A DNA stretch of 64,000 bases from an uncultured Gammaproteobacteria bacterium (GTDB lineage Bacteria > Patescibacteriota > Microgenomatia > Levybacterales > UBA12049): assembly GCA_964525395.1 (NCBI GenBank), contig CAZGGU010000002.1, positions 30,263 through 94,262 on the forward strand, given 5' to 3'. The position numbers were made by a program, and so were the translations under genes. The notes under the pieces were generated by a model. That model ran no database searches. It was given only the letters and a program-made list of their open reading frames with translations, and was not told the origin of the DNA. This document shows, one piece after another, positions 4,167 to 36,170 of the stretch. Numbering within the stretch: position 1 is the stretch's first letter; the number at the start of each line of letters is the position of its first letter.

Positions 4167-4199
4167 GCTTGATTTTAGCAGATTTGAGGCAAAAATGCT

Positions 4200-6818
4200 C
4201 TACTTCTGGCTAATAATATATTTTAACTCAATATCAGATTTAATCTGACCCGCATAAGCACCTTTTCCGACAATCTGGTAACCATCAGGTAAAGAAAAGT
4301 TCAAATTAAAAGGCAAGTATTCCGTTCCAGGCTGCTTAAAAAGCTTAAGAGAATATATTGCTGATTTATTTGTTGTGTTGAAAGAGTAAGGCAAGTCGTA
4401 ATTTATTAAAATGTTTTTGGAGCTAGATTTAGGAATATTAATAAACATTCCATAATAATTTTTACCAAGTACTTCTCCGGAATCAACTTCAAGTCCCACT
4501 GGTTTTTTAAAATTAATAGATTCATAAACCCTGAAATCTGTCTGCATTTGAGAGATTTCAAATTGCTTCTTGTCGATTAAGATTGAGGTTATCTGGCTTC
4601 CTGCCGGTAAAACTATCTTCATGTAATTAGAATAATTTAACTCAGATGATGAATTTTTATAACTAACTGAGACTGATGATTTAATCTTTCCAGAGGGATT
4701 AAAGCTTACCTTCTTAACAACACTTCTTGAAATGCTTGTGTTCACTTTATTCTTGCCCACATTAGTTTCAGAGATGGCTAAGTAGTCGTTTATTTGCTCC
4801 TCACCACGGTTGTCCCAAATAGCTGATGACCAACCGTTCGCTGTAAAAACATTCTGGAGACTGGGATTTTGCATTGCGAAAATAATATGTTTTTCCTTGA
4901 TAAGTCTCCCAATCTCTTCTGCGGTTTTTGTCATTGAGCGGTTTTCATTACTATCAATATTTGTTTTAATTCCATCAGCTACTTCTCCAAAATACCCTTC
5001 CCTATTTCCAGCTTCAAAATTTTCTGCACCGATTGTTTTAGAATCCACCATCACACCGCCACTAAGTTCTAACAAAGATTTTAAAAAATCACTATCCACT
5101 CCAATCACCCCATCTACCTCACTACCACTAGACTTTCCGTACATTCCCGAGGCGCTTATTGCGCTTTTTACAAAATCTGGGCTATTCAAACTGTCTTTGA
5201 TCAAGATATTCTTCTCTCCCATAAATCTTCTGTATTCAAAAGGTGGAAATGTATCTTGCTTAATTTTTTGATCAACTTCAGCTGGAGTTAAAACCTTAAA
5301 CTGCGTTATCTTTGCGTTTTTAACTTTTAAATCTACGAAAGAATTTATCTCTCCTCCACCTGGTCTAGCACTAGCATTATCAAACAAAATAACTAAATAG
5401 TTTTTTTCACCGTCAAATCCTAAAATCTCAGGTAAAATATCTGAAGAGTTAATAAAAAGATCAGTAAAAGGCTCAAGATTTTCCAACTTATCTCTATATT
5501 CTTTTGGCAAGTTTCCTTCAGCGTTTAATTTAGATGTCGTAGCCAGTGCAGATTTAAAATTATTGGAAGCAATTTGAAAATCTTCCTTAGGATTCGCACT
5601 TGACCCTTTATAAACTTTTTGGAGCGTCTCAAATCCTTCAAGCATACTAATGGTGGCGTCCGCTAGATCCTGTCCATTCCCAACGGAATCATGAATTTTT
5701 TCTGCTTCTCTTTTAAGACCAATGACTTCAGCTTCAGCGATTAATGGCTCTGACGTTTTTTCAGCAAAAGAAAAAAACGTCTTTGAATTATTCGCTTGCT
5801 TTATAGCTTTTTCAAAATCTCCTTTACCCGAGGACTTTACGGCGCTTCTAATCTCCCACTCCCCTAGTTTGGTGTACGCAACAGTGGAGAAAAATGGAAG
5901 AAGGGCTAGAAAAAGACATGCCAAAAGAAAAAATAAAACAGGCCTAAATATTCTATTCTTCACCCTTCTGTCTTTATTAATAACCTTCACTTCCCTATCT
6001 TCTTTTTCTTGTAGATCTAATTCTTTTATCTTCTTTTCCAAGTCATATTTTGAAATCGCATGTACTGCATTTTTAGGATAATAAATCCTTCTCTCCTTCT
6101 TTTCTTTTCCAAAATCGATTTTTAGATCTGGGTCAACTTTTTGAAAGACATTAGCTAGAGAAATATCAGTGATGGGATGTGGGTAAAAAAGTAAGATTAC
6201 TTTTTGGATAATATTTAATGTAGTCGCTTTGATGATTAACTTAATCGTATCCTCAAAGCTTACTGGAAAACTTAAAGACAAACCACTTCCTGGAACTTCG
6301 ATTTTTCCGAGCTTTCTTGCCTCTATTATATATCTTGAAACTGATGCATCTTTATCAAAAAATACTTTCTTATCAAAGATATCACCAAAGATTAATACCT
6401 TGGAATTGGCATATTCTGCAGCGATAGAATCGGCATGATCAATATCTGTATTGCGCAAACTCCCAATGAAAAACAAAGGAGCATCATGCTGCCTGGCCAG
6501 TTTTATAAATGAAAAGGCAGACTCCCTCGTTACGCTTCCCCCATCATCTATTAAAAATATCTTTTTATATTTGGCTTGTGGCACTAATGGAATCTTCTTT
6601 TTAAATTTAATTGGAATAATATTCTTTTCTTTTTTAATTTCAGCTGCAGAAAGAATAACGACTAAATAATCCTTGGCAAATTCTTTAGCAAGTGCCTCAC
6701 CTATTATCCCTACCTTATCGACAATGAGAATTACGTGATAGCTTGCCTGTGGTTCGGTGGTCAAAGTGGCAGATTTCATGAGTATATTAATTTTATGCGG
6801 AAGGAAGCATGTTATCAA
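4200..6818 (-). CDS. large (872 aa) membrane protein of unknown function (N-terminal Rossmann-like region, one TM, large extracytoplasmic domain, possibly DUF4012-like)
   Basis: Long ORF; central TM FRPVLFFLLACLFLALLPFF; N-term VILIVDKVGIIGEALAKEF resembles nucleotide-binding fold; no recognisable catalytic motif. Confidence 0.3.
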   Translation of the reverse strand: MITCFLPHKINILMKSATLTTEPQASYHVILIVDKVGIIGEALAKEFAKDYLVVILSAAEIKKEKNIIPIKFKKKIPLVPQAKYKKIFLIDDGGSVTRESAFSFIKLARQHDAPLFFIGSLRNTDIDHADSIAAEYANSKVLIFGDIFDKKVFFDKDASVSRYIIEARKLGKIEVPGSGLSLSFPVSFEDTIKLIIKATTLNIIQKVILLFYPHPITDISLANVFQKVDPDLKIDFGKEKKERRIYYPKNAVHAISKYDLEKKIKELDLQEKEDREVKVINKDRRVKNRIFRPVLFFLLACLFLALLPFFSTVAYTKLGEWEIRSAVKSSGKGDFEKAIKQANNSKTFFSFAEKTSEPLIAEAEVIGLKREAEKIHDSVGNGQDLADATISMLEGFETLQKVYKGSSANPKEDFQIASNNFKSALATTSKLNAEGNLPKEYRDKLENLEPFTDLFINSSDILPEILGFDGEKNYLVILFDNASARPGGGEINSFVDLKVKNAKITQFKVLTPAEVDQKIKQDTFPPFEYRRFMGEKNILIKDSLNSPDFVKSAISASGMYGKSSGSEVDGVIGVDSDFLKSLLELSGGVMVDSKTIGAENFEAGNREGYFGEVADGIKTNIDSNENRSMTKTAEEIGRLIKEKHIIFAMQNPSLQNVFTANGWSSAIWDNRGEEQINDYLAISETNVGKNKVNTSISRSVVKKVSFNPSGKIKSSVSVSYKNSSSELNYSNYMKIVLPAGSQITSILIDKKQFEISQMQTDFRVYESINFKKPVGLEVDSGEVLGKNYYGMFINIPKSSSKNILINYDLPYSFNTTNKSAIYSLKLFKQPGTEYLPFNLNFSLPDGYQIVGKGAYAGQIKSDIELKYIISQK

Positions 6819-9996: not shown

Positions 9997-11349
9997 ATGT
10001 TATCCACAATTGATCAACTTTGGGAAAAAGTACTTGCCGAAATACAAACTGAAGTTTCAGGTGCCAACTTTTTAACACTCTTCAAAAACACCACACTTTT
10101 GTCCCTGGAGGATAAAGTTGCCACTATTTCCGCTCCTAGCCCTATGATAATTGATTTACTTAATAAGCGTTTTTATGAAATTACCAAGAAAGTAATCGAC
10201 AAACACACAGGGGAGGATGTAAAGATTATTTTTGTTCCTAAAGCCATACAAAAACCCAACACTAATCCAGCTGACCATGGCCCGCTTTTTTCTGCCTTAC
10301 AACCAGTAGAAAAACCTATTGGCCACCTGCCAAGAGTGCGCCCTGATTTTATTTTTCAAAATTTCGCTGTTTCGGGATCCAACCAGCTGGCTTTCGTTTC
10401 TGCGAATACTGTGGCTAAAAAATTAGGAACCACATATAATCCTCTGTTTATTTATGGTCCCGTAGGGGTGGGCAAAACCCACTTAATGCATGCTGTGGCC
10501 AACGAAGCATATGCAGATGATCCTAATAGAAAGATTATGTATATAACTAGTGAGGAGTTTACCAATGAGGTAGTTGAGGCAATTAGAACCAACGACACAG
10601 CAAGAATGAAGCGTAGATTTAGGAACTTAGACCTTATCATGATTGATGATATTCAGTTCGTAGCCGGCAAGGAAAGAGTACAAGAAGAACTTTTCCACAC
10701 CTTCAATATCTTGGTGGATAACCAGGCCCAGATTATCCTAACCTCAGACCGCCCACCCTCAGAACTCCGCAAGGTAGAAAAAAGATTAGTATCTCGTTTT
10801 TCTGGAGGGCTCACGGTCGATATTGATTCTCCTGATTATGAGCTGCGTTGCGCCATCCTGCTTACAAAGGCTAAAAAATTTAACTTTGATTTAGATATAG
10901 AGACCGCCAAGATAATTGCATCTAAAACGGAAGATACGAGAGAACTTGAAGGACTGCTTCTTCGAGTTATGTCAGAAGCATCAAGCGAGGAGGGAAACCT
11001 TAGTCCGGATATGGCTAAAAAGGCGCTTTCAGCTAAAAGAGAAACTCCTCGTACTATGTTTCCTGAAGAGGTAATTAAAATCCTTTGCGAGTTCTACGGC
11101 GTAAAGCCTACGGCTCTCAAAGGCGACAAAAGAGACGCCAAACTAGTGCGCGCTAGGCAAACTTGCATGTTTGTTCTTAAAAAAGAGGGGGGACTTACTT
11201 ATGCTGAGATTGGAAACCTTCTGGGAGGCAGGGACCACACTACAGTAATGCATGGAGTGGAAAAGATTGAACTACTTTTGGCTAACGAAAAATATACAGA
11301 AGAAGCCTTGGGAATAAAAGAAGTCCACACTAGGGCTGTGGAAAACTAA
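9997..11349 (+). CDS. dnaA: chromosomal replication initiator protein DnaA
   Basis: Walker A GPVGVGKTHLMHAVANE, Walker B LIMIDDIQF, C-terminal DNA-binding helix-turn-helix; position next to dnaN and rpmH. Confidence 0.95.
   Translation: MLSTIDQLWEKVLAEIQTEVSGANFLTLFKNTTLLSLEDKVATISAPSPMIIDLLNKRFYEITKKVIDKHTGEDVKIIFVPKAIQKPNTNPADHGPLFSALQPVEKPIGHLPRVRPDFIFQNFAVSGSNQLAFVSANTVAKKLGTTYNPLFIYGPVGVGKTHLMHAVANEAYADDPNRKIMYITSEEFTNEVVEAIRTNDTARMKRRFRNLDLIMIDDIQFVAGKERVQEELFHTFNILVDNQAQIILTSDRPPSELRKVEKRLVSRFSGGLTVDIDSPDYELRCAILLTKAKKFNFDLDIETAKIIASKTEDTRELEGLLLRVMSEASSEEGNLSPDMAKKALSAKRETPRTMFPEEVIKILCEFYGVKPTALKGDKRDAKLVRARQTCMFVLKKEGGLTYAEIGNLLGGRDHTTVMHGVEKIELLLANEKYTEEALGIKEVHTRAVEN
10000..10008 (+). 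promoter_or_regulatory. perfect DnaA box TTATCCACA embedded in codons 2-4 of dnaA
   Basis: atgTTATCCACAattgat; exact 9-mer consensus. Confidence 0.55.
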
Positions 11350-11495: not shown

Positions 11496-12614
11496 ATGTT
11501 TGAAATCACAATTCTCTCTGATAAGTTAAAGTCTGGATTGTCATTTGCTAACCATGCAATTTCTTCTAGATCTCAATTGCCAATTCTCTTGAATTTTCTC
11601 TTACAAACTAAAGACGGAAAACTGGAGATCCATGCAACAGACTTGGAAATAGGAATTATTTATAAGACTCCTGTAAAAATTGATGGAGAAGGGGGAGTAA
11701 CGGTTTCAGCTAAAACATTTCTCGATCTAGTATCTAGCGTAAACAAAGACAAGATATCTCTTAAGAAAGATGTAGATACGCTTTTCTTAACAGCAGAGAA
11801 ATTGAAAACTTCATTTCCAACCATCTCCGCTGCTGATTTCCCCAAACTATATTCTGAGCTAGGTGAAAAAAGAGCAGAGTTTGATAAAGATGCGCTCGAG
11901 AAAGAGTTGTCTAAGATCGTGTTTGCTGCTGCTATGGACGCAGCAAGACCAGAGCTATTAGGAGTTCTTATTAAACAGGAAAAGGGGAGTAAGGGTTTGA
12001 CTTTGGTAGCTACCGATGGATTTAGATTATCACTTAAAAAAGGTTTTGGTGGTGGATCAGTGGCTAGCGAGGAAGCCAGCTTCCTAATACCCGCAAGAGT
12101 TATCAAGGAAGCACTCAGTCTTAAGGATGATAAGCAAAAAATTGAAATTTACACCCCAGAATCTAGTAACCAAGTTATTTTTGATACACCCGAAGCTACA
12201 ATTGTTGGACGCCTGATTGAGGGGACATACCCTAATTACGAGAATATCATCCCTGAAGATTTTGCCACCAAAGTCGAATTTGATCGCGAAGAAGTTTTAA
12301 ACGCAGTAAGGCAATGTTCAATCTTTGCTCGTGAAGCTGCCAATATTATAAAAATGTCCATAATGAGCGATAAGGTCGTTTTTAGTGCATCGGCTTCAGC
12401 GGTTGGGGATAATGAAGTAGAGGTGGAGGCTAAAGTAGATGGGGAAGAAAATCAAATAGCTTTTAATTCTAAGTACCTTATCGATTTTTTAAATAGCATC
12501 ACTGATGAGAGAATTATTTTTCAAATGAATGGACCATTAACCTCTGGCGTATTTAAAATAGTGGGGGATGAATCGTTTTTGCATCTAATAATGCCTATTC
12601 AGATAAAAGATTAA
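11496..12614 (+). CDS. dnaN: DNA polymerase III beta sliding clamp
   Basis: 372 aa, three-domain length; N-terminus MFEITILSDKLKSGLSFANHAISSRSQLPILLNF typical of DnaN; follows dnaA. Confidence 0.9.
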   Translation: MFEITILSDKLKSGLSFANHAISSRSQLPILLNFLLQTKDGKLEIHATDLEIGIIYKTPVKIDGEGGVTVSAKTFLDLVSSVNKDKISLKKDVDTLFLTAEKLKTSFPTISAADFPKLYSELGEKRAEFDKDALEKELSKIVFAAAMDAARPELLGVLIKQEKGSKGLTLVATDGFRLSLKKGFGGGSVASEEASFLIPARVIKEALSLKDDKQKIEIYTPESSNQVIFDTPEATIVGRLIEGTYPNYENIIPEDFATKVEFDREEVLNAVRQCSIFAREAANIIKMSIMSDKVVFSASASAVGDNEVEVEAKVDGEENQIAFNSKYLIDFLNSITDERIIFQMNGPLTSGVFKIVGDESFLHLIMPIQIKD

Positions 12615-13237
12615 TTTGCTTCAGCCGAAGGAGTAGTCGAGAGATTTAGCTCTGGTGCAATATTAACCATAAAACTCTGTTGATTTTGAGGAGCGAAATA
12701 TAATATTTCTCCGACATCTTTTCCATCACTTTTTATACCGACACCTTTAGTTAAGAAAATATCCCAAGGATAACCGTCGTTTAATTCAAATAGAGTCATG
12801 TTCGGTTTTCCATATTCTGACTTGAACTCAGAAACTGTCTTTCTATAATTCCCATAAACATTTTCAGTTGAATAAACAACTAGATTGTTTTTAACAAGAA
12901 TTACATTCTGGTGGGATTCAACTGGTGTTTTATAAAACAGGTAGGTTTTATCTGTAGTTCTTTTTATTTCATTTGCTTTGCCATTTATTTTTTGCGCCTC
13001 AGCAAAATTAGTTTTACCTGGGGTTATTTTATTAATTTGTGAGTATTCTGTTTCAAGCGCCTCTGTAGTAGAAGAATTTAGAGCTGGGGAAGGGGAGGGT
13101 GAATTATTCCCTCCTGGAACAAATGAAGTGCCGCTGACGATTGAAATTACCAATAGAATAAAGGCAATAATTGAGAATATGCCAATTAAAAACATTGTAA
13201 TTATTATTTTTTTGTCTGGTAAATCAAATCCATCCAT
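12611..13237 (-). CDS. membrane-anchored extracytoplasmic protein, last gene of T4SS-like operon
   Basis: N-terminal TM IITMFLIGIFSIIAFILLVISIV followed by SPSPSP linker; stop codon overlaps dnaN stop (convergent, 4 nt). Confidence 0.4.
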   Translation of the reverse strand: MDGFDLPDKKIIITMFLIGIFSIIAFILLVISIVSGTSFVPGGNNSPSPSPALNSSTTEALETEYSQINKITPGKTNFAEAQKINGKANEIKRTTDKTYLFYKTPVESHQNVILVKNNLVVYSTENVYGNYRKTVSEFKSEYGKPNMTLFELNDGYPWDIFLTKGVGIKSDGKDVGEILYFAPQNQQSFMVNIAPELNLSTTPSAEAN

Positions 13238-13953
13238 TATTTAAAAGAATATCCTCCAAATATATTATTTTTCACCCAATTTTCTCCGATAGGGCAGCTT
13301 CTGCTCCCCTGAGAAACAATTTGATCTGCCATAAATTCAGCCATACTCTCATTTGAGCCGCTTATATTTCTACCCAAGCTTCTTGCATAGGATGTGTCAT
13401 ATGTGTAGAAAAAATAAGGCGGAAACAATCCAGAAGCAAAAGTGTAGCAGTTTTTGTCCTTGTTGTATGCTTGAGATTCAAATTGTTGAAAAAGCCTCAT
13501 GTGGCCATTTCTAATAATGTGACCAGATTCATGAACTAGTCTTGCTTTTCTCTCGCTATTGCTTGCACAGCTTAAGCTATAACTTCTCAATGTTAGCGTA
13601 CTTGTTCCATCACCGTTGGATTGAACAGTTGCGGGGCATCCTCCTTCGCCAGTTGATATAAATTCAAGTCTGGTTGGGCCTGAACTCCTCAATAATTGTT
13701 TATATTTGGGAGCAGCTGATGCTTCAAGATATATTTTATAGACATCCTGAAGATATGCTTTAGGAGGATTCCCTTGTACTATTATGTTGAAGTCATCTCT
13801 TAAGCATTTAGCGGGATTGTCTAAGCAGGCTTGTGTGGGTTTTACTCCACTTCCAACAATAAGCCTTAAGACTGACTGATCAGCTGCGCGAGCGCTTGAA
13901 GAACTTATCAATAAAAGAAAAATTGGTAAGAAAATTATTAAGATTTTTTTCAT
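13237..13953 (-). CDS. secreted Cys-rich protein with zinc-metallopeptidase-like HExxH...H motif
   Basis: Signal peptide MKKILIIFLPIFLLLISSSSARA; LVHESGHIIRNGH motif; 4-nt overlaps with both flanking genes. Confidence 0.4.
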   Translation of the reverse strand: MKKILIIFLPIFLLLISSSSARAADQSVLRLIVGSGVKPTQACLDNPAKCLRDDFNIIVQGNPPKAYLQDVYKIYLEASAAPKYKQLLRSSGPTRLEFISTGEGGCPATVQSNGDGTSTLTLRSYSLSCASNSERKARLVHESGHIIRNGHMRLFQQFESQAYNKDKNCYTFASGLFPPYFFYTYDTSYARSLGRNISGSNESMAEFMADQIVSQGSRSCPIGENWVKNNIFGGYSFK

Positions 13954-15950
13954 GATTTACCCTCCTGTGCAGTACAAGCGCTACAAGATCCACTCGGAGA
14001 TCTTACTTCACCTCGTCTTATTATATCCTTGCATGCGCTAGTATTTTTAAATTTATCATAGTAACAAAGACATCTGGCGGTTCCCCAATAGCTAAAGTTT
14101 TTTCCATCCCTGGCCAAGGAGTTGTTATATGACACAGCGTTTTCTACCTGTTTTTGCCAAGTCACGTCTCCGCGGTCATCAGCCTGAGTCCAAATCTTGA
14201 ATGGGTTAGGGAAGCTTCTTCTCATCTGGAACTTTCCCCATGATCCCCCCGCGCCGTTTCGCCCATAACCGTTTGGCGTATTGGTCTCACATTTGGCAAT
14301 CGATTTCCACATGTTTTGATTAGCCACGTTTGCCTCTGTTTGCTCAATTACTCTGTTTAATTTAGCTTCTGAATATGTGCATAACGGATCACCGAAATTG
14401 GTTGCAGAGGACTGGGGAAAATCTTTTTTAAGAGTAGTCATAATTTCCCGATATTTACCGTTGCAGGTGTTATTGCTTGGCCTAGCTGTAGCGCCTTCAA
14501 ACAGTCCGCCATTTTCTCCGGAGGTGCCTCCATCATTGGTAAGTGTCACGCCACTCATGGTCAGAATCATGCTCGTGGCGCCTGTATCAGTTTGCAGGGT
14601 CCCGCTAACTGTAAATTCATAGTGTCTTTTGGTTCCACCTGTGTTTGGCAGGCTCCACTGATAGATAAAATAGGTAGTATCTACGGGAACGCTAATTATT
14701 TTAGGTTTAGGATTGTCTGGTGTTTCAATGTTTGCGAAAAATCTATTACTGATTTGAACATTGGCCTTTAAGTTGCTTGGGTTAGTATCGAGCTTAGCGG
14801 TGTCAACATCGATGATTACTTTTACTGAAACCTTATCGCCTTTACTTCCTGCTGGGCAGTTTACTCTGCAGCCATCTGCTGTAGCAAGATAAGCCTCGCC
14901 CCCCACAAAAGTGACAGAGGTGGGTTTTTCCTGTGGACCCGGTGGCGGCTGTGTGACTTGATCAGGGTTATTGCCACAATAGTTTGCTCCGAAAAAGTCT
15001 CCAATCGGATTATTCACTACGCTACAGCCCAGTATTAGTATAATTATTACTAGTAGAAAAATTGCAAATATTACTCCCACCACAGGTCCCCATATCTCGA
15101 TTGTGGAAAGTAGTGTTCTGGCTACTGCTTTTTTGCCTTGAGACTTCAAAGTCTTTCCTAAAGCTTTTTTGGTTATTCTACCCCTTTTTCTCAGAGCTCT
15201 TCCGGCCGGCCTTGCTTTTGATGGAGCAGTGGACACTTGAGGTGTTGATTGCGGTTCTGGGAGCGGTTCTGGTATGGGTTCAGACCTTCCCCAGTCATCG
15301 AAATTGCTTGGGATGATTTCGGGATCAGGATAGTAGCCAATTTCAGATATAGACGGGGTGGTAGCGCTTGGGGTGGTGGTTGCGTTTTGTTTGGTAGCTT
15401 CTTGCGCACTGTTTTCTTGCTGAGGATTCAAGGAGACTGAAGGAACGCTTGATTCAATTTCGCCCCATTCAGATTTAAGTTGAGCTAAATCCTGCGGAGT
15501 AGTTTCAGAAATTTTTTCCCCAGCTTTTTGCATTTGGTCAAAGCGCGTCTTGGGTTGGGTGGGAGCATTTTCGATCGAAGTATTATTTGGTTTATCTTTT
15601 TTCTCTTCTGCTTCTGGTTTTTTAGGCTCAGGTTTTGGCTTTGGGGCAAAAGGCGCGTCCCATCCCGAAAGCGCATTGCTAAATACATTTCCCCCTGGAG
15701 TTTCTTTAGGCATTTCCTTAATCTCAGGTTTTTCTGGTTCAGGGGCTTGAATTCTTGATGCTAGCCAATCTTGTCGGGCAAGAAGTGTGCCCGGAATGTC
15801 TCTTATTCCTTTAGAGCGTAAAACTGCCTCAAGGTCTACCTGGGAACCACTCAGTGCAATTTCTTTTTCTTGCGGGGTAAGTAGGCTATAAACAAGCTCA
15901 AAACGCCTAGAGTTTCTTAGTCTTTTCTCAGCTGTAGGATCGTTTGCCAT
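13950..15950 (-). CDS. bitopic membrane protein with C-terminal Rpf/transglycosylase-like (lysozyme-like) domain; candidate T4SS cell-wall hydrolase (VirB1/PrgK/TcpG analog)
   Basis: Central TM VVGVIFAIFLLVIIILILG; Pro/Lys-rich linker; C-terminal KCETNTPNGYGRNGAGGSWGKFQM...W...SYWGTARCL resembles Rpf transglycosylase-like domain (CESGGNW..NGYYGGLQF...W...C). Confidence 0.5.
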   Translation of the reverse strand: MANDPTAEKRLRNSRRFELVYSLLTPQEKEIALSGSQVDLEAVLRSKGIRDIPGTLLARQDWLASRIQAPEPEKPEIKEMPKETPGGNVFSNALSGWDAPFAPKPKPEPKKPEAEEKKDKPNNTSIENAPTQPKTRFDQMQKAGEKISETTPQDLAQLKSEWGEIESSVPSVSLNPQQENSAQEATKQNATTTPSATTPSISEIGYYPDPEIIPSNFDDWGRSEPIPEPLPEPQSTPQVSTAPSKARPAGRALRKRGRITKKALGKTLKSQGKKAVARTLLSTIEIWGPVVGVIFAIFLLVIIILILGCSVVNNPIGDFFGANYCGNNPDQVTQPPPGPQEKPTSVTFVGGEAYLATADGCRVNCPAGSKGDKVSVKVIIDVDTAKLDTNPSNLKANVQISNRFFANIETPDNPKPKIISVPVDTTYFIYQWSLPNTGGTKRHYEFTVSGTLQTDTGATSMILTMSGVTLTNDGGTSGENGGLFEGATARPSNNTCNGKYREIMTTLKKDFPQSSATNFGDPLCTYSEAKLNRVIEQTEANVANQNMWKSIAKCETNTPNGYGRNGAGGSWGKFQMRRSFPNPFKIWTQADDRGDVTWQKQVENAVSYNNSLARDGKNFSYWGTARCLCYYDKFKNTSACKDIIRRGEVRSPSGSCSACTAQEGKS

Positions 15951-15953
15951 ATG

Positions 15954-17987
15954 TTAGAAAGTTTTAGTTGCATCATTAATGTTTTGACTAGGTAGAGGTG
16001 ATTCTGGCGCTGATTGAAAGCCAAAATCAACCGGAGCTGATGGTTGATGGGATGCAGGCGGAATGGGTGCAGGTTGGGTTGGGCTTGCAGCCTCAATATT
16101 CAGATTAGGGTTGGTTGTTATTTCTACTTTTTCTTCTTGGGGATGAGATTCGATGGCTGAGCCAAATTGTGATTCCAGTGTATTGTCAGGGCGCTGCTCT
16201 TGTTCTTTAAGTGCTTTTAGTTTGAGAACTTCTTCGGGATTGGAAGTAATAAGTTCATGTTCAAATGGCGCAGCCAAAACCTTCATGGCCACATGACTTT
16301 GGCCAGCGAAGAATAATCCTTCACCGATGTTGGCAGAGAGCAAGAGTTGTTTTTCTTGTTCGGAAAGATAGAAAATATTTGATACCAAATCAATCTGCGT
16401 TGGGCTTTGTTTCAGCAGCATTTGAATAGATGAGTTTGAAAGTACAGCCTTGCCGTAATCATTGGACAAAAAGTCCTGAACATCCTGTGTTGCAGTAGTT
16501 AGAGCAAGGTAATATTTACGAGCTCGCTTAGCAATTCCGTGTACAAAAGAAGCTGAATCTTGATACTTCATTAAATACCATGCCTCATCTAAGACTAGTA
16601 GGCGTTTTTTAAGATCTTTTCTTACCTTGGTCCAAATAAAATCAAGAATGATATGCATTGCCACAGGACGTAGTTGATCTTCAAGTCCTTGCGTTGAGAA
16701 AATAGTCAAAGGATTTTTAATATCAAAGTTAGACTGCTGATTAAATATTCCAGCCATGCTGCCTTTAATAAATTTCTCAAGCCTGAGAGCCAAGTCTCTA
16801 GCAATAGGATCTTCTGTGCCAAGCAAGACCTTGTATAAATCTTCCATAAGGGGTGGTTCTTTAGTTTGCGTTGAAGGATCAGGGGTAATTCCTTTTTGAC
16901 GATAGGTTTCCACTAGCGCGCGGTCAAGAATGGCGTCATGTTGTGCGTCAATGTCTCCCAAAACAATCCTGAGTAGGGCGTGCAGAGACAGGATTTTTAG
17001 TCCTAGTTCGTTTTCCCCCTCTTCGTATCTTCCTGAAAGATCAAAAGGATTAATCTTAATAGGTGAGGCTGGGGTAAACTCTACATATTCTCCTCCCATA
17101 GCTCGCGTAAGCTCTCCATACTCGCCTTCAGGGTCAATAACGATAACCTCTGTACCAAACATAAACTGCCTCATGATTTCTAGCTTGATCAAATAAGATT
17201 TTCCAGATCCTGACTTTCCGAATACTACCTCATTGCCGTTCTCAAGAGAATATCGATCAAAGACTATTAATGAGCCATTGAGTTGATTAATGCCATACAT
17301 GACGCCCTTATCTTGAGTAAGTGTGGCTGATGTGAAGGGAAAGGTGGATGCAAGACTGGTAGTGTCCATATTGCGCGTGAGAAGAAGCTCATCTCGCGCT
17401 AAAGGCACAGTGGATTTAAATCCCTCCTCCATCTGTAATGTTGAAGGTTTAGCGGTCAAGAGAATTGAAGCAAGAAGGGTCTTGAGTCTTTTTCCTGCTT
17501 CTTTTAGTTCTTCTAAATCATCAGCAACGAGTGTTACATAGAGGCTAAATTGGAAAAATCTCTCAATACCTTTGGCAAGCTCCTCTTGAACGGCAAGCGC
17601 ATCTTCGAGAGAGGCTTGAACTGTGGGATCCAAAACTTTTCCATCTTCTTCTTGCTTGGAAAGCGTAGCTTCCATTTCAGCGATTTTTCTTCTTAAGTCT
17701 CCCAAAATATCTCCAGATGACTGAGGATAGCAAAACATGGAGATGTTTAGTGATTGATCAAAATCAATTAAAGGCTCTAGCCAATTCGGCGAAACGTATC
17801 TTGGATATCCAACCACGAAAAATGTTTTAAAATATTTTTCTCCGACGCGAATGTGTCCGAAATCGACCTCTACGGATGGGGGAGCGATAATGTCAGTCAC
17901 ACTGTTCATTCCACGCTCGAAATGCTCAAGTGGTTTATTCGTTTTGGTTGGCATTGGAACAACAGGAGCTTTTTTTCGTCCAAACAT
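15954..17987 (-). CDS. virB4: type IV secretion ATPase VirB4/TrbE/PrgJ family (main body)
   Basis: Walker A FGKSGSGKSYLIK, Walker B LLVLDEAWYL, conserved VirB4 N-domain segment HIRVGEKYFKTFFVVGYPRYVSPNWLEPL. Confidence 0.8.
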   Translation of the reverse strand: MFGRKKAPVVPMPTKTNKPLEHFERGMNSVTDIIAPPSVEVDFGHIRVGEKYFKTFFVVGYPRYVSPNWLEPLIDFDQSLNISMFCYPQSSGDILGDLRRKIAEMEATLSKQEEDGKVLDPTVQASLEDALAVQEELAKGIERFFQFSLYVTLVADDLEELKEAGKRLKTLLASILLTAKPSTLQMEEGFKSTVPLARDELLLTRNMDTTSLASTFPFTSATLTQDKGVMYGINQLNGSLIVFDRYSLENGNEVVFGKSGSGKSYLIKLEIMRQFMFGTEVIVIDPEGEYGELTRAMGGEYVEFTPASPIKINPFDLSGRYEEGENELGLKILSLHALLRIVLGDIDAQHDAILDRALVETYRQKGITPDPSTQTKEPPLMEDLYKVLLGTEDPIARDLALRLEKFIKGSMAGIFNQQSNFDIKNPLTIFSTQGLEDQLRPVAMHIILDFIWTKVRKDLKKRLLVLDEAWYLMKYQDSASFVHGIAKRARKYYLALTTATQDVQDFLSNDYGKAVLSNSSIQMLLKQSPTQIDLVSNIFYLSEQEKQLLLSANIGEGLFFAGQSHVAMKVLAAPFEHELITSNPEEVLKLKALKEQEQRPDNTLESQFGSAIESHPQEEKVEITTNPNLNIEAASPTQPAPIPPASHQPSAPVDFGFQSAPESPLPSQNINDATKTF

Positions 17988-18649
17988 TATTTATTTCCTC
18001 CCTTCACAGTTTTTGCTGATACGTATGGATTATGAATTCCGTCGGTAAGGTTAGAGCGTCCAGCTTCTTCATTGAACGATTCATAGTAAAGCTCAATTAG
18101 CTCCTCTTTCTCTAGAACTTTTGACTTAAGGCCAACGCGCTGAAGTTCTTGCATAAGAGAACGTGCTTTTGAGACAAGCATAGGCTTGGCTTCTTTAGCA
18201 AAATCTTCTTTATTTCTAATATTGGTCACTGCTCCTGCGCCCTTTTCCAGAAAAGAATAGGTAAAAACAAGATAAAATTTCTTATCAAGGACTGTTTCTT
18301 TTTGGATAAGGTTGGCTACAAAATCCTTATAGAGAAGGATGTGTTTGGAAAGTAGGGGATTGTTCGTTTTCTTTGACTCTGCGTCTAGAAGATGAACGTA
18401 GGAGCTAATATCAAGCTTTCTGGAAACAATCAGAATCTGAATTGGGTAAGAAAGTGAATTTAGGAAAGAAGCATACGAGAGAATTTTAACTTGCTGCTCC
18501 TCAGGCGACTGCAAAGCGAAGTTGGTAGCGGTAATTTCTAGAACCATGCATGCCTGATTGCCGGGTAAAACCACTACGCTCTCGAATATGTCCTGAATTT
18601 CAATAAAGCGTTGAGTGGTTGTATTTATTTTTTGGGCAGATTTGCTCAT
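17987..18649 (-). CDS. separately encoded VirB4 N-terminal segment (split virB4), translationally coupled
   Basis: VVVLPGNQACMVLEITATNFALQSPEEQQVKILSYASFLNSL matches the first conserved block of the CagE/TrbE/VirB4 N-domain; stop overlaps next start as TAATG at 17985-17989. Confidence 0.5.
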   Translation of the reverse strand: MSKSAQKINTTTQRFIEIQDIFESVVVLPGNQACMVLEITATNFALQSPEEQQVKILSYASFLNSLSYPIQILIVSRKLDISSYVHLLDAESKKTNNPLLSKHILLYKDFVANLIQKETVLDKKFYLVFTYSFLEKGAGAVTNIRNKEDFAKEAKPMLVSKARSLMQELQRVGLKSKVLEKEELIELYYESFNEEAGRSNLTDGIHNPYVSAKTVKGGNK

Positions 18650-19885
18650 TTAGTTAAAAAGCTCCCTCCTAAGCTCTTCCCTTTTATCCACCGAAGTTAC
18701 TTCAATTGGCATAATTGGATGACCGGTTGCTTCGATTTGAACAATGTCGAATTTATTTTCTTCTTTAGGGTCTTCAAAGCTCAGGAAATATTTGCCATTT
18801 GAAACAGAGGTGGCTGAAGCAAATTGACCAAGGCCATTGGTTTTAAATGCTCTGACAGGATTATCTTCTTCGTCTTTTACTTCAACTAATACGTTCTGAA
18901 GTGGATTTCCTCTCGGGTCTTTTACAATTCCAGTGATAAGATTGGGCGCTTCAGGCATGCTAAGAACTCCTGCAGCCTTGGTTTGATTTGGCGCCACTTG
19001 CTTTACTCTTGGTTCCTGAGTTGCTTGAGGTGCTGGAGGGTTGGGCTGGCTCGTTGGCTGAGCAGGAATCACTGGAGGAGTTGAATGATCCTCAAGCTTA
19101 GAGTTGATCTTAAGAACCTCTCGCTCTAGTTCTTCTTTTTGACGAGTTGCTTCAGCAAGCATTTTTTCTAACTCTGCGATTTTTTGATCAGCAGCATCTT
19201 GATTTACGGCTGGAGCGGTTTGCTCAAGTGTTTTGCTTGCCTCAATTTGTTTTTCAAGAATCGCAGTTTCTGCATCTATTTTTTTCTCTGCAGCTTCCAC
19301 TTTTGCCTTTTGCTCTTGGTCTAGTTGATCTTGTTGAGCTTTTTCTTGAGCGGCTCTAGCAAGCTCGTCTGCGCTTGGTTGATTAGGAGTAGGAGCTACT
19401 TGTGCTGGCGCTGGGACTGGAGCTTGAATTGGTTGGATTTGTTGAACAGGTTGAGCTGAGATTTGATTTAATTCAATAGTTTGCATAACGGGAATATTTG
19501 GTGCTTGAACTGGCACGTGTGGCGCAGGCAAGGGGATGACTTGGGGTATCTGCTTCTCGGAAACTGTTTGCTTCTGGGTTTTAGTGATATCTCCACCATC
19601 TTTTCCATAAATATATTTCGTGGGGGAAAGCATGGCTCTGAAAAGATTGATAAACATAGTGTCCATTGGGCGTCCGTCCACGGGAACGAAGGTAAAGATT
19701 ATTCCTATAGTTACAATCACAATTGAGATTGGCCAAGAAATGATGTGAGGAATTGGCAACAGGAAAGAGATAAACCAGCCAATCAAAACGACAACTGCCA
19801 AATACACAAACTGCCTAACGGTCATAGAACCGATAAGCTTAAATTGAAAGCCTGTAATGTCTTGGGGAATTGGGTGATTCTCCAT
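18650..19885 (-). CDS. PrgI/VirB3-like two-TM protein fused to long Pro/Gln-rich coiled-coil and C-terminal globular domain
   Basis: N-term IPQDITGFQFKLIGSMTVRQFVYLAVVVLIGWFISFLL followed by second TM matches PrgI-family topology/motif (P.D...K....T.RQ); central coiled-coil EQKAKVEAAEKKIDAETAILEKQIE. Confidence 0.45.
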   Translation of the reverse strand: MENHPIPQDITGFQFKLIGSMTVRQFVYLAVVVLIGWFISFLLPIPHIISWPISIVIVTIGIIFTFVPVDGRPMDTMFINLFRAMLSPTKYIYGKDGGDITKTQKQTVSEKQIPQVIPLPAPHVPVQAPNIPVMQTIELNQISAQPVQQIQPIQAPVPAPAQVAPTPNQPSADELARAAQEKAQQDQLDQEQKAKVEAAEKKIDAETAILEKQIEASKTLEQTAPAVNQDAADQKIAELEKMLAEATRQKEELEREVLKINSKLEDHSTPPVIPAQPTSQPNPPAPQATQEPRVKQVAPNQTKAAGVLSMPEAPNLITGIVKDPRGNPLQNVLVEVKDEEDNPVRAFKTNGLGQFASATSVSNGKYFLSFEDPKEENKFDIVQIEATGHPIMPIEVTSVDKREELRRELFN

Positions 19886-20013: not shown

Positions 20014-20388
20014 TTATTGAGTGCCCCTGCCTGCTCTAAGGTTAGTCGCGTTGGTAGTTGCATTGCATGATGTAAAGCCAAATTTAGTAATGCAGCCAAC
20101 TCCTGTTATGCCAGCAATAATATTTAAAACAGCGAAGGACATAAGTATAACTATGAGACCGATTAGAGCCCAAGTGATAGTTTTTTTAGCCCCATCTGCT
20201 GCCTTAGGGTCTCCTCCAGAGGTGATATATTTTATTCCGCCAAGAATTACTAAGAAAAGTGCAATTATTCCTGCGAAGGTTAGAGCCCAAAAAATAAGGT
20301 TTTGAAATAGTACAGTTGCACAGTCTAAGGTAAGTATCTCCCCATACTTACTATCAAACGCACAAGCATTACCAGCTAATTTAAACAT
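20014..20388 (-). CDS. VirB2/TrbC-like pilin paralog 3
   Basis: Two hydrophobic helices flanking ILGGIKYITSGGDPKAADGAKKTITWALIGL; shared motif with the two upstream paralogs. Confidence 0.55.
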   Translation of the reverse strand: MFKLAGNACAFDSKYGEILTLDCATVLFQNLIFWALTFAGIIALFLVILGGIKYITSGGDPKAADGAKKTITWALIGLIVILMSFAVLNIIAGITGVGCITKFGFTSCNATTNATNLRAGRGTQ

Positions 20389-20431
20389 AAATTTAGCGTA
20401 ACAAAGAGGGGATTAAATCTCAAGCGGAAGT

Positions 20432-20851
20432 TTAACTGTTGGTGTAATTGGTAAGTGTGGGAAGAGTTAAATTGGTTAAGTTAATTCCGAAAAAGCCAAG
20501 TAAAATGTTCAAGATAAAGAATGACAAGAACATGATTGCGAGACCGATAAGAGCTGCTACAATCATTTGTCTTGATGCATCAACCTTCTTGGAGTCTCCG
20601 CCTGACATTATCCACTGAATTCCTCCAAAAATAAGGAAGCCGAGAGCAATAATTACGCCGATTACGAAAACTACTTGGATAAGGGTAGCCACTATTCCGC
20701 TGAAATCAGAGAGAGTTAATTTACAAAGTCCGCCAAATCCTCCACCAGGGCATACGCTAATTTTTTGTTGAGCATGTGCTTGAGGAGCGAGTGTTAAGAA
20801 TGGTACCGCTGAAAGTGAAATGGCAGTTATCTTTTTCATGTATATAAACAT
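20432..20851 (-). CDS. VirB2/TrbC-like pilin paralog 2 (with cleavable signal peptide)
   Basis: Signal peptide ...LTLAPQAHAQQ; FLIFGGIQWIMSGGDSKKVDASRQMIVAALIGLAIMFLSFFILN. Confidence 0.55.
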   Translation of the reverse strand: MFIYMKKITAISLSAVPFLTLAPQAHAQQKISVCPGGGFGGLCKLTLSDFSGIVATLIQVVFVIGVIIALGFLIFGGIQWIMSGGDSKKVDASRQMIVAALIGLAIMFLSFFILNILLGFFGINLTNLTLPTLTNYTNS

Positions 20852-20887
20852 CGTAGAAATATTTTAAATTCTTGTCAAGGGGTCAAT

Positions 20888-21223
20888 TTATGTGAGCTTT
20901 AAAAGATTGAGTCCGAAGAATCTGCCGACTACATTAATTATGAAAAATGCTAAGAAGGTGATGATAAGGCCAATCGCTGCGAAAGTAATTTTCTTTCTGG
21001 CCCCATCTACAGCTTTCGCATCTCCACCTGATGAAATCCACTGAATCCCGCCCCACATGATGAAAAATAAGGCTGCTAAGACTGCAGCAATAAACATGTA
21101 TGTAATTCCCAAGCGAATTACACCTTGAAGAGTGGGGAGACCAGACTCAGGCATGCCACCAATGGGTTTTAAATCAATTTGTTTGCCGTCACTGGGAACT
21201 TTAAGTGCTATTTCTCTAATCAT
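20888..21223 (-). CDS. VirB2/TrbC-like pilin paralog 1
   Basis: FFIMWGGIQWISSGGDAKAVDGARKKITFAAIGLIITFLAFFIIN; two TM hairpin. Confidence 0.55.
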   Translation of the reverse strand: MIREIALKVPSDGKQIDLKPIGGMPESGLPTLQGVIRLGITYMFIAAVLAALFFIMWGGIQWISSGGDAKAVDGARKKITFAAIGLIITFLAFFIINVVGRFFGLNLLKLT

Positions 21224-21225
21224 AT

Positions 21226-22470
21226 TTAACTAAATCCTGGAAGACCAAGGATATCAACTGTAATTAATCTAAGAATTGAGAGAGAAAAGATGATGAGTAA
21301 AAGTCCTGCAACGGCTGCTATTATGGCTTCTCTTGCTTCTGCTATTTTTTTAGGGTCCCCCTGTGAGGTCATTAGTTTAAATCCATTAGCGATAAAAAGA
21401 ATAATAAGAATTCCACCGGAAAGACTGAGGACGAGAATCAGCACGCTTCTAGCAAAGCCTTCAGGATTAATCCCAATCTTACCTATAGCTGTGTTGCAGG
21501 AGTTTGGAATTGCTTCGCCGGATTTAGGCTGACAGGGATTAGAAACTTTATTGCCCGGGTAGTCATAGCAGCCCAACTTTCCATCTGTGCCTGTGGTGCA
21601 GTATTTGCCACCGCATTCGGAATCATTATTGCAGCCTGAATGACCACCGTTTTGATCCACCGTGAAAGAGTCTGAGCAGTTTGTGTTATATTTGCCATCG
21701 ATCTGGACTTTATATGAGTTTTCTCCTATTAAATCATTTCCTACCGATACTCCCGCCGCTGCCTCGAGTTCACTTCTAGTTGGTGTAAATCTTTTTATCT
21801 CTGATCCATTTTCAGTTCCATTTATTTGAATAATTCTGACAAGCATTTTATCTTCAGGTTTTTCTGTAAACTCCTTTTTAAATGCAGCTTTTATTTTAAC
21901 TTCAGTTCCAGGCTTAAAATCAGTGTTTAGATATGTAATCGTGCAAAACTTATTGTCAACGCTAGTTTTTTGAATTTCCAAAGAGGCGCTTCCTAGGCTG
22001 CAGAGTAGAAAATCTCTGTTTTGACCCTGCTCTCCTTGGTGTCCGGTGGTTCTTAAATTGAATTCATATTTGCCAGGGTTGAAATCTGATGCATGATCCC
22101 CCTTTGTGTTTCCATTTCGATCAAATGGGGTATTAACAGTTGCGAGAGTATCTTCTTCGAATCGTTCCAGCGTCACTTTCGCAGGTACATTTGATTTATA
22201 AAATAAATCTCCAGTATCTTCTCCAATCGTACGAATGTCTCCTCCTTGTGGATTTATTGTCATTTCAATATTTGACGTAAGTGGAATTTGTTGACCCTTT
22301 ATTTTTAAGGTGATGCTATTTATTATATGGTCATCATCTCCTGCAGACTGTTTTTCTGAAATCTTCTGGATAGAACATTCACTTTTAGAATTTTGAGCAT
22401 AAGTAGGCTGAGTGTAAGTTGAAACAATCAGTATTAAAAAGAGTAGGACAGCAAAGATAATTCTTTTCAC
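21226..22470 (-). CDS. secreted Cys-rich extracellular domain fused to C-terminal pilin-like module (candidate minor pilin/tip adhesin)
   Basis: Signal peptide MKRIIFAVLLFLILIVSTYTQPTYA; Cys-rich GCNNDSECGGKYCTTGTDGKLGCYDYPGNKVSNPCQPK; C-terminal ILFIANGFKLMTSQGDPKKIAEAREAIIAAVAGLLLIIF shares the pilin paralog motif. Confidence 0.5.
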   Translation of the reverse strand: MKRIIFAVLLFLILIVSTYTQPTYAQNSKSECSIQKISEKQSAGDDDHIINSITLKIKGQQIPLTSNIEMTINPQGGDIRTIGEDTGDLFYKSNVPAKVTLERFEEDTLATVNTPFDRNGNTKGDHASDFNPGKYEFNLRTTGHQGEQGQNRDFLLCSLGSASLEIQKTSVDNKFCTITYLNTDFKPGTEVKIKAAFKKEFTEKPEDKMLVRIIQINGTENGSEIKRFTPTRSELEAAAGVSVGNDLIGENSYKVQIDGKYNTNCSDSFTVDQNGGHSGCNNDSECGGKYCTTGTDGKLGCYDYPGNKVSNPCQPKSGEAIPNSCNTAIGKIGINPEGFARSVLILVLSLSGGILIILFIANGFKLMTSQGDPKKIAEAREAIIAAVAGLLLIIFSLSILRLITVDILGLPGFS

Positions 22471-22506: not shown

Positions 22507-23814
22507 TTAAGGTGTGAATTTAAAGCCGCGTCCTTTTACAGTTTGCAGATGAAGCGGTGAATTAGGGTTTTCTTCAATTTTTTTCCTAACCCTAAAAATA
22601 AGTTGATCAAGCGCTTGCTCTGAGACCCCAACTGTAGTGCCTAAATCTCCCCAAACTGCAGAGATGATTTCCTCTCTTTCGATTATCTTGTCAGGATTCA
22701 TTAGCAGATAAGCAAGAAGCTTAAATTCAGCAGATGTTAAAGATTCTGAAATAATAATTTTTCCTTTTTTAATTTCTTTAGACTCTTTATTAAAACTAAT
22801 CTTTTGAGTATCTGTCTCATTTTGTTTTTTTGCATAAGACATGAGTAGCGGAAGAGCAAATTTATTATCCCTAACTAATCCTACTGCCACGAGATGTGAA
22901 GAATCGTGAGCTTTGTTTTCCTCGATGAGGTTTTGCTCAAATGGAGTAAAATATTTCCAAATTTCTTCCAAAACTGCCTTGATTCTGCTGTTTGAAAATA
23001 AAGATTTTTCTAAATTTTCTTGTTCACCGTTTTCTAGACAAGCCTCAGCTGCTACTCTGGTTAGTTTTCCTACGCCTCCAGTTAAATTCGTGACTGTCTC
23101 GAGTGTTTGCTCTGAAAGTTTTTTATTCGCTTGTTTTTGAATATAATTTAACCTGAAATCTAAAACTGCCTTATTCATCAGCGGCAAATATACTATATTT
23201 CCTACTACGAATTCGTAATAATCAGCAATTAAATCATTTTCTACTATTTCTTCGAGTGGGCGAGAGAGAGGAAAGATAGCAGAGAAGCGATATTTAGCTC
23301 TGTCTCTAAGAACCCTAAGATTGCTAAAAAATTGTGGCGTAAGCATTGGGAGATATTCCTCAAAGCGATCGAAGAGAAAAACAACTGTATATTCTTTTTC
23401 AAGTGACAGATAATCAATAGATTTTCGCAGTCCTTGAAACAGAACTAGTTCATCGTTGGTTTTGAGGCTTTGTTCGAAAAGTCCACGAATATATTTAGAT
23501 TCTTCTTCCAGATGGCGTTCTTCAAAAGAATCAAGTAGCTCAAGAAACATATACTTGGTAGCCTCAGTTAATGGTCGTTTTTTAATTTCAGAGAAATTCA
23601 TCATGACGAAGTGAAACCATTTTTCGTTTTCCTTGAGGTGAAGAGTTCTGGCTTCGCGATTGTAGGAAAGAAGTCCCATGATGTTGGATCTTCCTACGCC
23701 TGGAAGAGAAACGATTTGCGCAGAATTTCCAGATTTTATATATGAGAGGACTTTATCAATTTCATCAAACCATGAATCTGGGGGATATAGAGATTCGAAA
23801 TGTTTAGGATCCAT
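22507..23814 (-). CDS. transcriptional regulator: N-terminal P-loop/STAND-like NTPase domain + C-terminal OmpR/PhoB-type winged-helix DNA-binding domain
   Basis: C-term LTSAEFKLLAYLLMNPDKIIEREEIISAVWGDLGTTVGVSEQALDQLIFRVRKKIEENPNSPLHLQTVKGRGFKF = trans_reg_C wHTH; N-term SLPGVGRSNIMG (degenerate Walker A) and VVFLFDRFEE (Walker B-like). Confidence 0.55.
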   Translation of the reverse strand: MDPKHFESLYPPDSWFDEIDKVLSYIKSGNSAQIVSLPGVGRSNIMGLLSYNREARTLHLKENEKWFHFVMMNFSEIKKRPLTEATKYMFLELLDSFEERHLEEESKYIRGLFEQSLKTNDELVLFQGLRKSIDYLSLEKEYTVVFLFDRFEEYLPMLTPQFFSNLRVLRDRAKYRFSAIFPLSRPLEEIVENDLIADYYEFVVGNIVYLPLMNKAVLDFRLNYIQKQANKKLSEQTLETVTNLTGGVGKLTRVAAEACLENGEQENLEKSLFSNSRIKAVLEEIWKYFTPFEQNLIEENKAHDSSHLVAVGLVRDNKFALPLLMSYAKKQNETDTQKISFNKESKEIKKGKIIISESLTSAEFKLLAYLLMNPDKIIEREEIISAVWGDLGTTVGVSEQALDQLIFRVRKKIEENPNSPLHLQTVKGRGFKFTP

Positions 23815-36140: not shown

Positions 36141-36170
36141 AAAAATCCGCAGTTACGCGGATTTTATTTG
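36141..36170. terminator. bidirectional rho-independent terminator (serves comFC on + and putative tmRNA on -)
   Basis: aaaaatccgcagttacgcggatttttatttg: 6-bp GC stem atccgc/gcggat, 6-nt loop, flanked by A-run and T-run. Confidence 0.6.

Follow-up and report, generated by a model that had tools for sequence, protein, structure and literature searches.

A 64,000-nucleotide stretch of contig CAZGGU010000002.1 (GenBank assembly GCA_964525395.1, positions 30,263 to 94,262, forward strand; an uncultured bacterium placed by GTDB in the Patescibacteriota), hereafter the window, carries two adjacent genes for proteins of 666 and 238 aa. We propose that this pair probably opens the cell wall for a Patescibacteria-type type IV secretion system (T4SS): a membrane-tethered glycan cutter acting through Glu555 and a co-exported zinc peptidase would breach it locally. 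Both genes lie directly behind virB4 in a T4SS operon, and they are most likely the missing cell-wall-opening enzymes of that operon.

The operon is one long minus-strand unit that fills 12.6-23.8 kb of the window and runs convergent to dnaA (9997..11349, +) and dnaN (11496..12614, +). From 5' to 3' it encodes a 435-aa winged-helix protein, four T4SS_pilin paralogues, a PrgI-domain protein, a split VirB4, and then the 666-aa, 238-aa and 208-aa proteins, so ordered that the T4SS genes (pilins, PrgI-domain protein and VirB4) all lie upstream of the pair on the same strand. The gene content of the window and of related loci is Patescibacteria-like, and the operon is a chromosomal Patescibacteria-type (MPF-FATA-like) T4SS, in whose setting VirB6 was not detected. 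Set against the published distribution (PMC12102498), this lack, the pilin array and the neighbouring dnaA and dnaN make a Microgenomatia-like lineage probable. The 666-aa gene (13950..15950, -) starts 3 nt past the VirB4 stop codon. The 238-aa gene (13237..13953, -) overlaps it by 4 nt (ATGA), with an AGGAGG Shine-Dalgarno sequence 8 nt upstream of its start, and is in turn overlapped by 1 nt by the 208-aa gene.

An earlier note on this DNA, made from the sequence alone, had described the 666-aa product as a bitopic protein ending in a transglycosylase domain of the resuscitation-promoting factor (Rpf) type, a likely peptidoglycan-cutting analogue of VirB1 or PrgK, followed by a secreted, possible zinc peptidase. 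Both open reading frames (ORFs), their 4-nt overlap and the quoted motifs (CET, GKFQM, W and C in the first protein, HESGH in the second) were found at verified coordinates, and the T4SS context was borne out by VirB4 (NF045971), the PrgI-domain protein and the four T4SS_pilin paralogues. Homologues occur in the same gene order on at least eight independent contigs, so the genes are not chance ORFs. In all six related loci examined for this (L001-L006), a lysozyme-like homologue directly follows VirB4, a strict adjacency that fits the peptidoglycan-cutting role proposed by analogy with VirB1 and PrgK.

A lysozyme-like head on a membrane anchor

The 666-aa protein is a single-pass membrane protein built from five parts. 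Its cytoplasmic N-terminal region (residues 1-284; 15099..15950, -), assigned by composition and the positive-inside rule, is rich in Pro, Glu, Lys and Ser and of low complexity. It is followed by a single transmembrane helix (residues 285-311; 15018..15098, -), the sole hydrophobic segment of the protein, which agrees with the bitopic topology claimed before. Fourteen Lys/Arg residues stand just before this helix and all 12 Cys residues at or after it, which argues for a single crossing with the N-terminus inside and the C-terminal 355 residues outside. Outside the membrane come a beta-rich spacer domain (residues 340-475; 14526..14933, -) conserved only in the closest homologues, the lysozyme-like catalytic module (residues 486-629; 14064..14495, -), which belongs to a family without an existing model, and a Cys-rich C-terminal tail (residues 630-666; 13953..14063, -) restricted to closer relatives. 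In the family alignment the gap fraction exceeds 0.5 past residue ~632, and the AlphaFold2 (AF2) model is confident there. The anchor is a general feature of the family: 115 of 123 full-length-looking members have a transmembrane-type segment upstream of the lysozyme-like domain.

Within the low-complexity cytoplasmic tail stands the motif TRFDQMQKAGEKISE (residues ~135-149), which recurs in the homologues P0002, as TRLEQMEKAGKAITE, and P0050, as TRMEEMKRAGKKISE, and can be written as the pattern TR(F/L/M)xxMxxAGxxI(S/T)E. It may serve to dock the tail on a partner in the cytoplasm, for example the VirB4 of the T4SS. The spacer is probably an immunoglobulin (Ig)-like fold: the equivalent region of the homologue in L005 consists of two DUF11 repeats (PF01345, E 3e-10), and the fold can only be inferred for the window protein because its own segment had no Pfam match.

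We defined the head family by an exhaustive phmmer search of 1.84 billion representatives with residues 312-666 (E<=1e-3). It comprises 273 cluster representatives (50% identity clusters), whose common part is the C-terminal module, residues ~486-629. A word-indexed search with the full 666-aa query returned 2 matches, swamped by the low-complexity tail. Across 127 aligned modules, the (near-)invariant positions are C496, Y500, N518-F-G-D-P-x-C524, W548, E555, P559-N, G572-x-F-Q575-M576, D592-R-G594-D595-V-x-W598-x-x-Q601-x-x-N604-A605 and Y621-W622. Glu555 (codon 14286..14288, -), the putative catalytic general acid, is present in 99% of these homologues, and the Cys directly before it (C554) is kept in 69% of the family. 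In the window protein, the motif positions were verified as C554-E555-T, G572-K-F-Q-M, W622 and C627/C629.

A profile of 50 modules compared with PDB sequences matched c-type lysozymes, with Musca lysozyme (2fbd) at E 4.3e-5 and human lysozyme at ~1e-2. In the alignment E555 falls on Glu35, GxFQM meets GIFQIN, and the YW near the end of the module meets the closing W...C of lysozyme. At the Asp52/53 position, in the alignments to 2fbd and human lysozyme, the family consensus has Ala and the window protein has Ser570. In the AF2 model of residues 473-666 (pLDDT 94.4, pTM 0.90), helix 70-83 of the model ends with E555, and the short strands that carry GKFQM come next. Searched with Foldseek against the whole PDB, this model returned c-type lysozymes and lactalbumins at the top (hen egg-white lysozyme, HEWL, E 0.04, probability 0.96, TM-score ~0.5 on the target), with neither Rpf nor SLT proteins among the top 50. 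When members were scanned singly against Pfam at E<=1, SLT was matched by 13 of 50 (best 2e-6), Rpf by 6, Phage_lysozyme2 by 4 and Lys by 1. Three of six retested distant members passed the SLT gathering score, over profile positions ~14-50 of 117 (the catalytic motif) only; the window head itself had no match to SLT (PF01464).

From the lysozyme-like fold, the significant profile link (2fbd, SLT) and the conserved Glu at the helix end, it follows that the head is a member of the lysozyme-like superfamily (Pfam clan CL0037) with its catalytic Glu kept. This superfamily match and the Glu were what the earlier note had made its idea depend on, so the core of that idea stands; its Rpf-type label does not.

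We consider it improbable that the C-terminal domain is a true Rpf-family (PF06737) domain, a small muralytic domain recruited to a T4SS. The resemblance is real in places. The motif order W..IA.CE(T/S)...G.FQ...W..C parallels Rpf; hhalign, run with an RpfB sequence checked against 4kl7, sets W-D-A-I-A-G-C-E and GGVQF of RpfB on W548..E555 and GKFQM, bringing C554-E555-T556 at the helix end onto RpfB 'GCEAG'; the core from W548 to C629, ~80 aa, has the size of an Rpf domain; and one family member covers PF06737 positions 2-75 of 77, at E 0.007. Yet the window protein gave no PF06737 match at E<=1, the best family member reached 17.4 bits against a gathering score of 27, and PF06737 was matched at E<=1 by 6 of 50 members where SLT was matched by 13. 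The hhalign comparison of the family with RpfB attained 14.7% probability over 31 columns and spans W548..GKFQM only, whereas the module has an extra N-terminal subdomain of ~60 aa with the invariant C496, NFGDP and C524, and the family-specific DRGDVxWQxQ. Against HEWL, hhalign gave 6.3% over 78 columns; these probabilities against single RpfB and HEWL sequences are low and do not discriminate between the two. We therefore rejected Rpf membership on the missed PF06737 threshold, the low hhalign probability, the structural search, in which Rpf is not nearest, and the length of the module (~145 aa against ~75-80 aa).

SLT and c-type lysozymes are as close to the head as Rpf, or closer. With c-type lysozymes (GH22, PF00062) it shares the best profile match, the best Foldseek matches and the placement of Glu555 on Glu35, of GKFQM on GI(F/L)QIN and of the C-terminal W...C on W108/W111...C115; it differs in the Ser/Ala at the Asp52 equivalent, which leaves it without the second carboxylate, in its Cys pattern, in its extra N-terminal subdomain and Cys-rich tail, and in that TM-scores are ~0.5 on the target at an identity of 14-18%. 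With SLT or family-1 lytic transglycosylases (GH23, PF01464; VirB1, EtgA) it has in common the ES...G(L)xQ(M) motif and, probably, a single-carboxylate active site, and some distant family members rise above the SLT gathering threshold; that match, however, is confined to the stretch of the profile around the catalytic motif and does not extend to the window protein. Like the Rpf domain, it has CE(S/T/A) with Cys directly before Glu, a G-x-Q-F/M strand, a terminal W...C and a core of ~80 aa, but it falls below the PF06737 score threshold, is structurally no closer to Rpf than to other lysozyme-like folds, is twice as large and has invariant motifs of its own. The head is thus a separate, so far unmodelled family, about equidistant from GH22, GH23 and Rpf.

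The HExxH partner and related loci

The 238-aa protein begins with a typical Sec-type signal peptide (residues 1-24, 13882..13953, -), a hydrophobic N-terminus ending ...SSSARA|A (MKKILIIFLPIFLLLISSSSARA|A), in agreement with the secretion assumed in the earlier note. The homologues P0165, P0163 and P0050 have a transmembrane anchor at the same position. Among the 24 homologues found, profile search included, H141, E142, G144, H145, C169, E202 and C220 are invariant. They include the putative zinc-binding and catalytic motif HESGH (residues 141-145, with H141, E142 and H145; 13519..13533, -) and Glu202 (13348..13350, -), the candidate third zinc ligand of gluzincin type.

The best matches of the AF2 model (pLDDT 85.9) were zincins: botulinum neurotoxin (BoNT)/A light chain (8.5), Certhrax N-domain (8.3), PPEP-3 (8.3), MtfA (8.2) and PPEP-2 (7.8). 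On this model the zincin fold lies nearest to ATLF-like proteins. At the sequence level, a below-threshold profile match to PPEP-1/Zmp1 (E 0.24) set HExxH and the segment from E202 on PPEP-1 chain residues 162-195 (...KEFFAESFAYY...CPQTY), DUF2268 was matched at E 0.005 in three of the 24 members, and PF07737 was not matched significantly (best E 0.13, in one of 24). The protein thus resembles ATLF-like/M34 gluzincins (anthrax lethal factor, PPEP-1/2/3) and MtfA in its HExxH with a downstream Glu and in the PPEP-1 match over HExxH and the E202 helix, and differs from them in having no significant sequence match, in its three conserved Cys pairs and in its T4SS setting beside a lysozyme-like domain. 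The Cys pairs suggest a disulfide-stabilised extracellular enzyme.

The earlier note had read HESGHxxxxGH as a possible zinc peptidase motif. A zinc peptidase remains plausible on the invariant HExxH, Glu202 and the zincin fold; the third His does not carry over, since many homologues have Asn, Arg or some other residue in place of H151. With H151 not conserved and Arg rather than Gly at the +3 position, we rejected a metzincin (HExxHxxGxxH plus Met-turn). On the model, the best reading of the protein is plausibly a gluzincin-type metallopeptidase.

The neighbourhoods of the homologues tie the two families together. In L001-L004 the HExxH gene, the homologue of the 208-aa gene and dnaN come after the lysozyme-like gene, with dnaA also detected in L002 and L004. 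The dnaA, dnaN and VirB4 of L002-L006 are 57-85% identical to those of the window, and the T4SS layout is the Patescibacteria one. L005 departs from this order: its lysozyme-like gene is followed by a secreted CHAP protein (PF05257, 34.8 bits), a Big_5 protein and a more distant HExxH protein (LIHELGHLI). The lysozyme-like and CHAP proteins of L005 form the pair of glycosidase and peptidase that is classic for the T4SS hydrolases of Gram-positive bacteria. A masked run (XXXX in the translation) interrupts the lysozyme-like gene of L005 (997..3477, 3479..5536), and the ORF reads into unrelated sequence.

The two domains also occur in one chain. In L009, P0050 (681 aa), with a cytoplasmic tail, a transmembrane helix, and HExxH and lysozyme-like domains, lies between VirB4 and the homologue of the 208-aa gene. 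A scan of 150 family representatives with the HExxH profile added P0024, P0009 and P0135, plus fragments, so that the fusion is present in at least four representatives. These fusions and the ATGA overlap in the window argue for functional coupling of the glycosidase-like and peptidase-like partners. P0163, from a groundwater lineage (L007 958..2310; L008 2195..3547), combines a transmembrane helix, a Cys-rich/Ig-like region and HExxH without a lysozyme-like head; it directly follows VirB4 in L008, and in L007 the contig end cuts the upstream gene. Since P0163 occupies the slot after VirB4 without a lysozyme-like domain, the membrane scaffold beside VirB4 appears to carry exchangeable wall-degrading heads. 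That HExxH is either fused to the lysozyme-like domain or replaces it on the same scaffold (P0163, P0165) argues that both act at the same site.

Proposed wall opening and its alternatives

In the mechanism we propose, one helix would anchor the 666-aa protein in the cytoplasmic membrane with its N-terminus inside, the disordered cytoplasmic tail would probably dock on VirB4 or the inner-membrane complex, and the beta-rich spacer would lift the disulfide-rich head into the wall. There Glu555, as general acid, would cleave the MurNAc-GlcNAc backbone of peptidoglycan. Because the Asp52 position is Ser or Ala across the family, single-carboxylate chemistry (lytic-transglycosylase-like or g-type-like) is, judging from the alignment, more likely than the two-carboxylate chemistry of c-type enzymes. 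The gene of the 238-aa protein is translationally coupled to the first one, and its product, a Sec substrate, is predicted to bind zinc through H141, H145 and E202, with E142 as its catalytic residue. Its most likely targets in that wall are the stem peptides or the cross-links. Between them the two enzymes would open the wall locally to let the T4SS channel or pilus through, acting on the cell's own wall and possibly on the host's too. The fold, conserved residues, gene order and domain fusion were computed here, and the substrate, the chemistry and the docking role are what we infer.

Comparable enzymes are known from Gram-positive conjugation: TraG of pIP501 combines SLT and CHAP, PrgK of pCF10 combines LytM, SLT and CHAP, and CwlT of ICEBs1 combines a muramidase with NlpC/P60. 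The window pair shares with them the location inside an MPF-FATA-type T4SS cluster, the N-terminal membrane anchor and the combination of a lysozyme-like glycosidase with a peptidase, fused in some of its homologues, as well as the presumed opening of the wall for the channel (PMC12102498). The features of this class recur among its relatives: the position directly downstream of VirB4 is found in the window, in the six loci and in L009, the anchor is a single transmembrane helix, and glycosidase and peptidase are combined in the fusions and, with CHAP, in L005. The window protein differs from TraG, PrgK and CwlT in its long disordered tail on the cytoplasmic side and in a head that is not recognisable as SLT/GH23, FlgJ or GH25. 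As the peptidase, an HExxH zincin takes the place of CHAP, NlpC/P60 or M23, and each activity has a gene of its own, the two genes being translationally coupled.

A parallel among Patescibacteria is Ca. Southlakia epibionticum ML1 (Saccharimonadia), in which lysozyme and peptidase homologues downstream of virB4 are reported to be essential for epibiotic growth (PMC12102498; PMC10633639 Tables S1/S2). SEML1_0006 and SEML1_0007 share with the window pair the position just after virB4, in a T4SS cluster near dnaA/dnaN, and the glycosidase-plus-peptidase logic. By their described domain families they differ, with a PF18013 phage-tail lysozyme, PF01832 glucosaminidase and Cys proteinase, and a Hedgehog/DD-peptidase fold in SEML1_0007; an HExxH zincin is absent there.

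Several points weigh against the proposed wall-opening module. Both enzyme activities are predictions from sequence, model and gene context, and the geometry of the H141/H145/E202 zinc site is putative. Searched as single sequences, neither the 666-aa nor the 238-aa protein had a significant match in Pfam, NCBIfam, PHROGs or PDB. To our knowledge, the peptidases that cut peptidoglycan for T4SSs belong to the CHAP, NlpC/P60 or M23/M15 types and do not include HExxH zincins. Because the nearest zincin folds (lethal factor, BoNT, PPEP) cleave proteins, the substrate of the zincin may not be peptidoglycan.

A different task for the zincin is possible, though we doubt it: the HExxH protein could process or shed T4SS proteins (VirB2-like pilins, adhesins) in the manner of a Pro-Pro endopeptidase, leaving the head alone to open the wall. 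The four divergent pilin paralogues of the operon need maturation, both the nearest folds and the weak sequence similarity of the HExxH protein lead to protein-cleaving ATLF-like/PPEP proteases, and we know of no HExxH gluzincin established as a T4SS peptidoglycan peptidase. Against such a division of labour stand the repeated fusion of HExxH to the lysozyme-like domain, its ability to replace that domain as the head, and the CHAP protein in the L005 neighbourhood. It seems unlikely to us that the pair is instead an offensive tool, one that breaches the wall of the host where the two cells touch and so gives the T4SS or pilus access to the host membrane. Patescibacteria T4SS clusters have neither a relaxase nor a coupling protein, and hosts are their presumed target (PMC12102498), the cluster of S. 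epibionticum is essential for epibiotic growth (PMC10633639), including the lysozyme and peptidase genes downstream of virB4 (PMC12102498), and the nearest folds of the zincin, lethal factor and BoNT, are toxin proteases. But tethering to the producer's membrane in 115 of the 123 full-length family members would limit the reach of the head, the gene order and coupling to VirB4 resemble those of the assembly hydrolases of Gram-positive conjugation systems, and no immunity gene is evident beside the pair.

The head might also be catalytically dead and only bind peptidoglycan or play a structural part in the envelope complex of the T4SS, which we regard as very improbable. The window protein matches no curated hydrolase family, and the Asp52 of c-type lysozymes is missing, replaced by Ser570 or Ala. 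However, lytic transglycosylases and g-type lysozymes are active without an Asp52 equivalent, and the Glu at the catalytic position is kept in nearly all homologues along with the flanking GxFQM motif.

The proposed wall-opening module bears on a question raised by a survey of 3,035 Patescibacteria genomes, in which VirB1 homologues were not associated with virB4 in most classes and the wall-opening enzyme was left open (PMC12102498). The locus offers a concrete candidate for that role in two parts, a lysozyme-like family of 273 representatives without a Pfam or NCBIfam model and an equally unmodelled zincin family, tied to each other by gene order, translational coupling and recurrent fusion. 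Genes without family matches were left unannotated in the survey (PMC12102498); profile models of both families would annotate such genes in these T4SS clusters, and would give testable targets for studying how this apparatus, on which epibiotic growth depends in the one genetically tractable relative, crosses the wall. The known principle of a T4SS with glycosidase and peptidase is extended here rather than replaced by a new one, and the novelty lies in the domain families. More speculatively, the HExxH partner could be the founder of a gluzincin-type family of peptidoglycan endopeptidases for a secretion machine and, together with the head, a tool of Microgenomatia-like Patescibacteria for breaching walls, their own and the host's, at epibiont-host contact. 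We give this idea a low probability; if true, the pair would supply the VirB1 function that is missing and help to determine the parasitic way of life of a large lineage without cultures.

Other genes of the operon and the window

The last gene of the unit (12611..13237, -) encodes the 208-aa single-pass membrane protein, with one N-terminal transmembrane helix and an outer domain of ~150 aa without Cys. The slot is conserved, and orthologues hold it in L001-L005, L007 and L009. No Pfam, NCBIfam or PDB match was found for the protein, and its family profile searched against PDB gave only transmembrane-helix noise. A VirB8-like component, which surveys of Patescibacteria do not find, is one possible identity for it.

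Upstream of the pair, the split VirB4 ATPase (15954..18649, -; NF045971 conju_CD1110, E 6e-116; PF19044) consists of a TrsD-like N-part of 220 aa (17987..18649, -), joined by a start/stop overlap to an ATPase part of 677 aa (15954..17987, -) with a Pro/Gln-rich C-terminal tail of ~90 aa. In the PrgI-domain (VirB3-like) protein (18650..19885, -), the PrgI domain is fused to a long linker rich in Pro and, at the C-terminus, to a CarboxypepD_reg-like beta-sandwich (E 6e-7), an architecture that recurs in L004 and L009. The four divergent T4SS_pilin (VirB2-like) paralogues span 20014..22470 (-); one of them is 414 aa long, its pilin domain confined to the C-terminal end. In the 435-aa protein at the operon head (22507..23814, -), only a C-terminal winged helix of OmpR/PhoB type was matched (E 1e-18) and a receiver domain was not recognised; the protein may regulate the T4SS as a one-component system like ToxR or CadC.

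Two large ORFs beside the operon, of 1037 aa (23915..27028, +) and 523 aa (27054..28625, -), are without a Pfam match. Elsewhere the window contains a tmRNA gene (36168..36577, -; 82.4 bits), seven tRNA genes and an AdoCbl-II (cobalamin) riboswitch aptamer (54913..54983, +) at 47.9 bits, above the gathering score.

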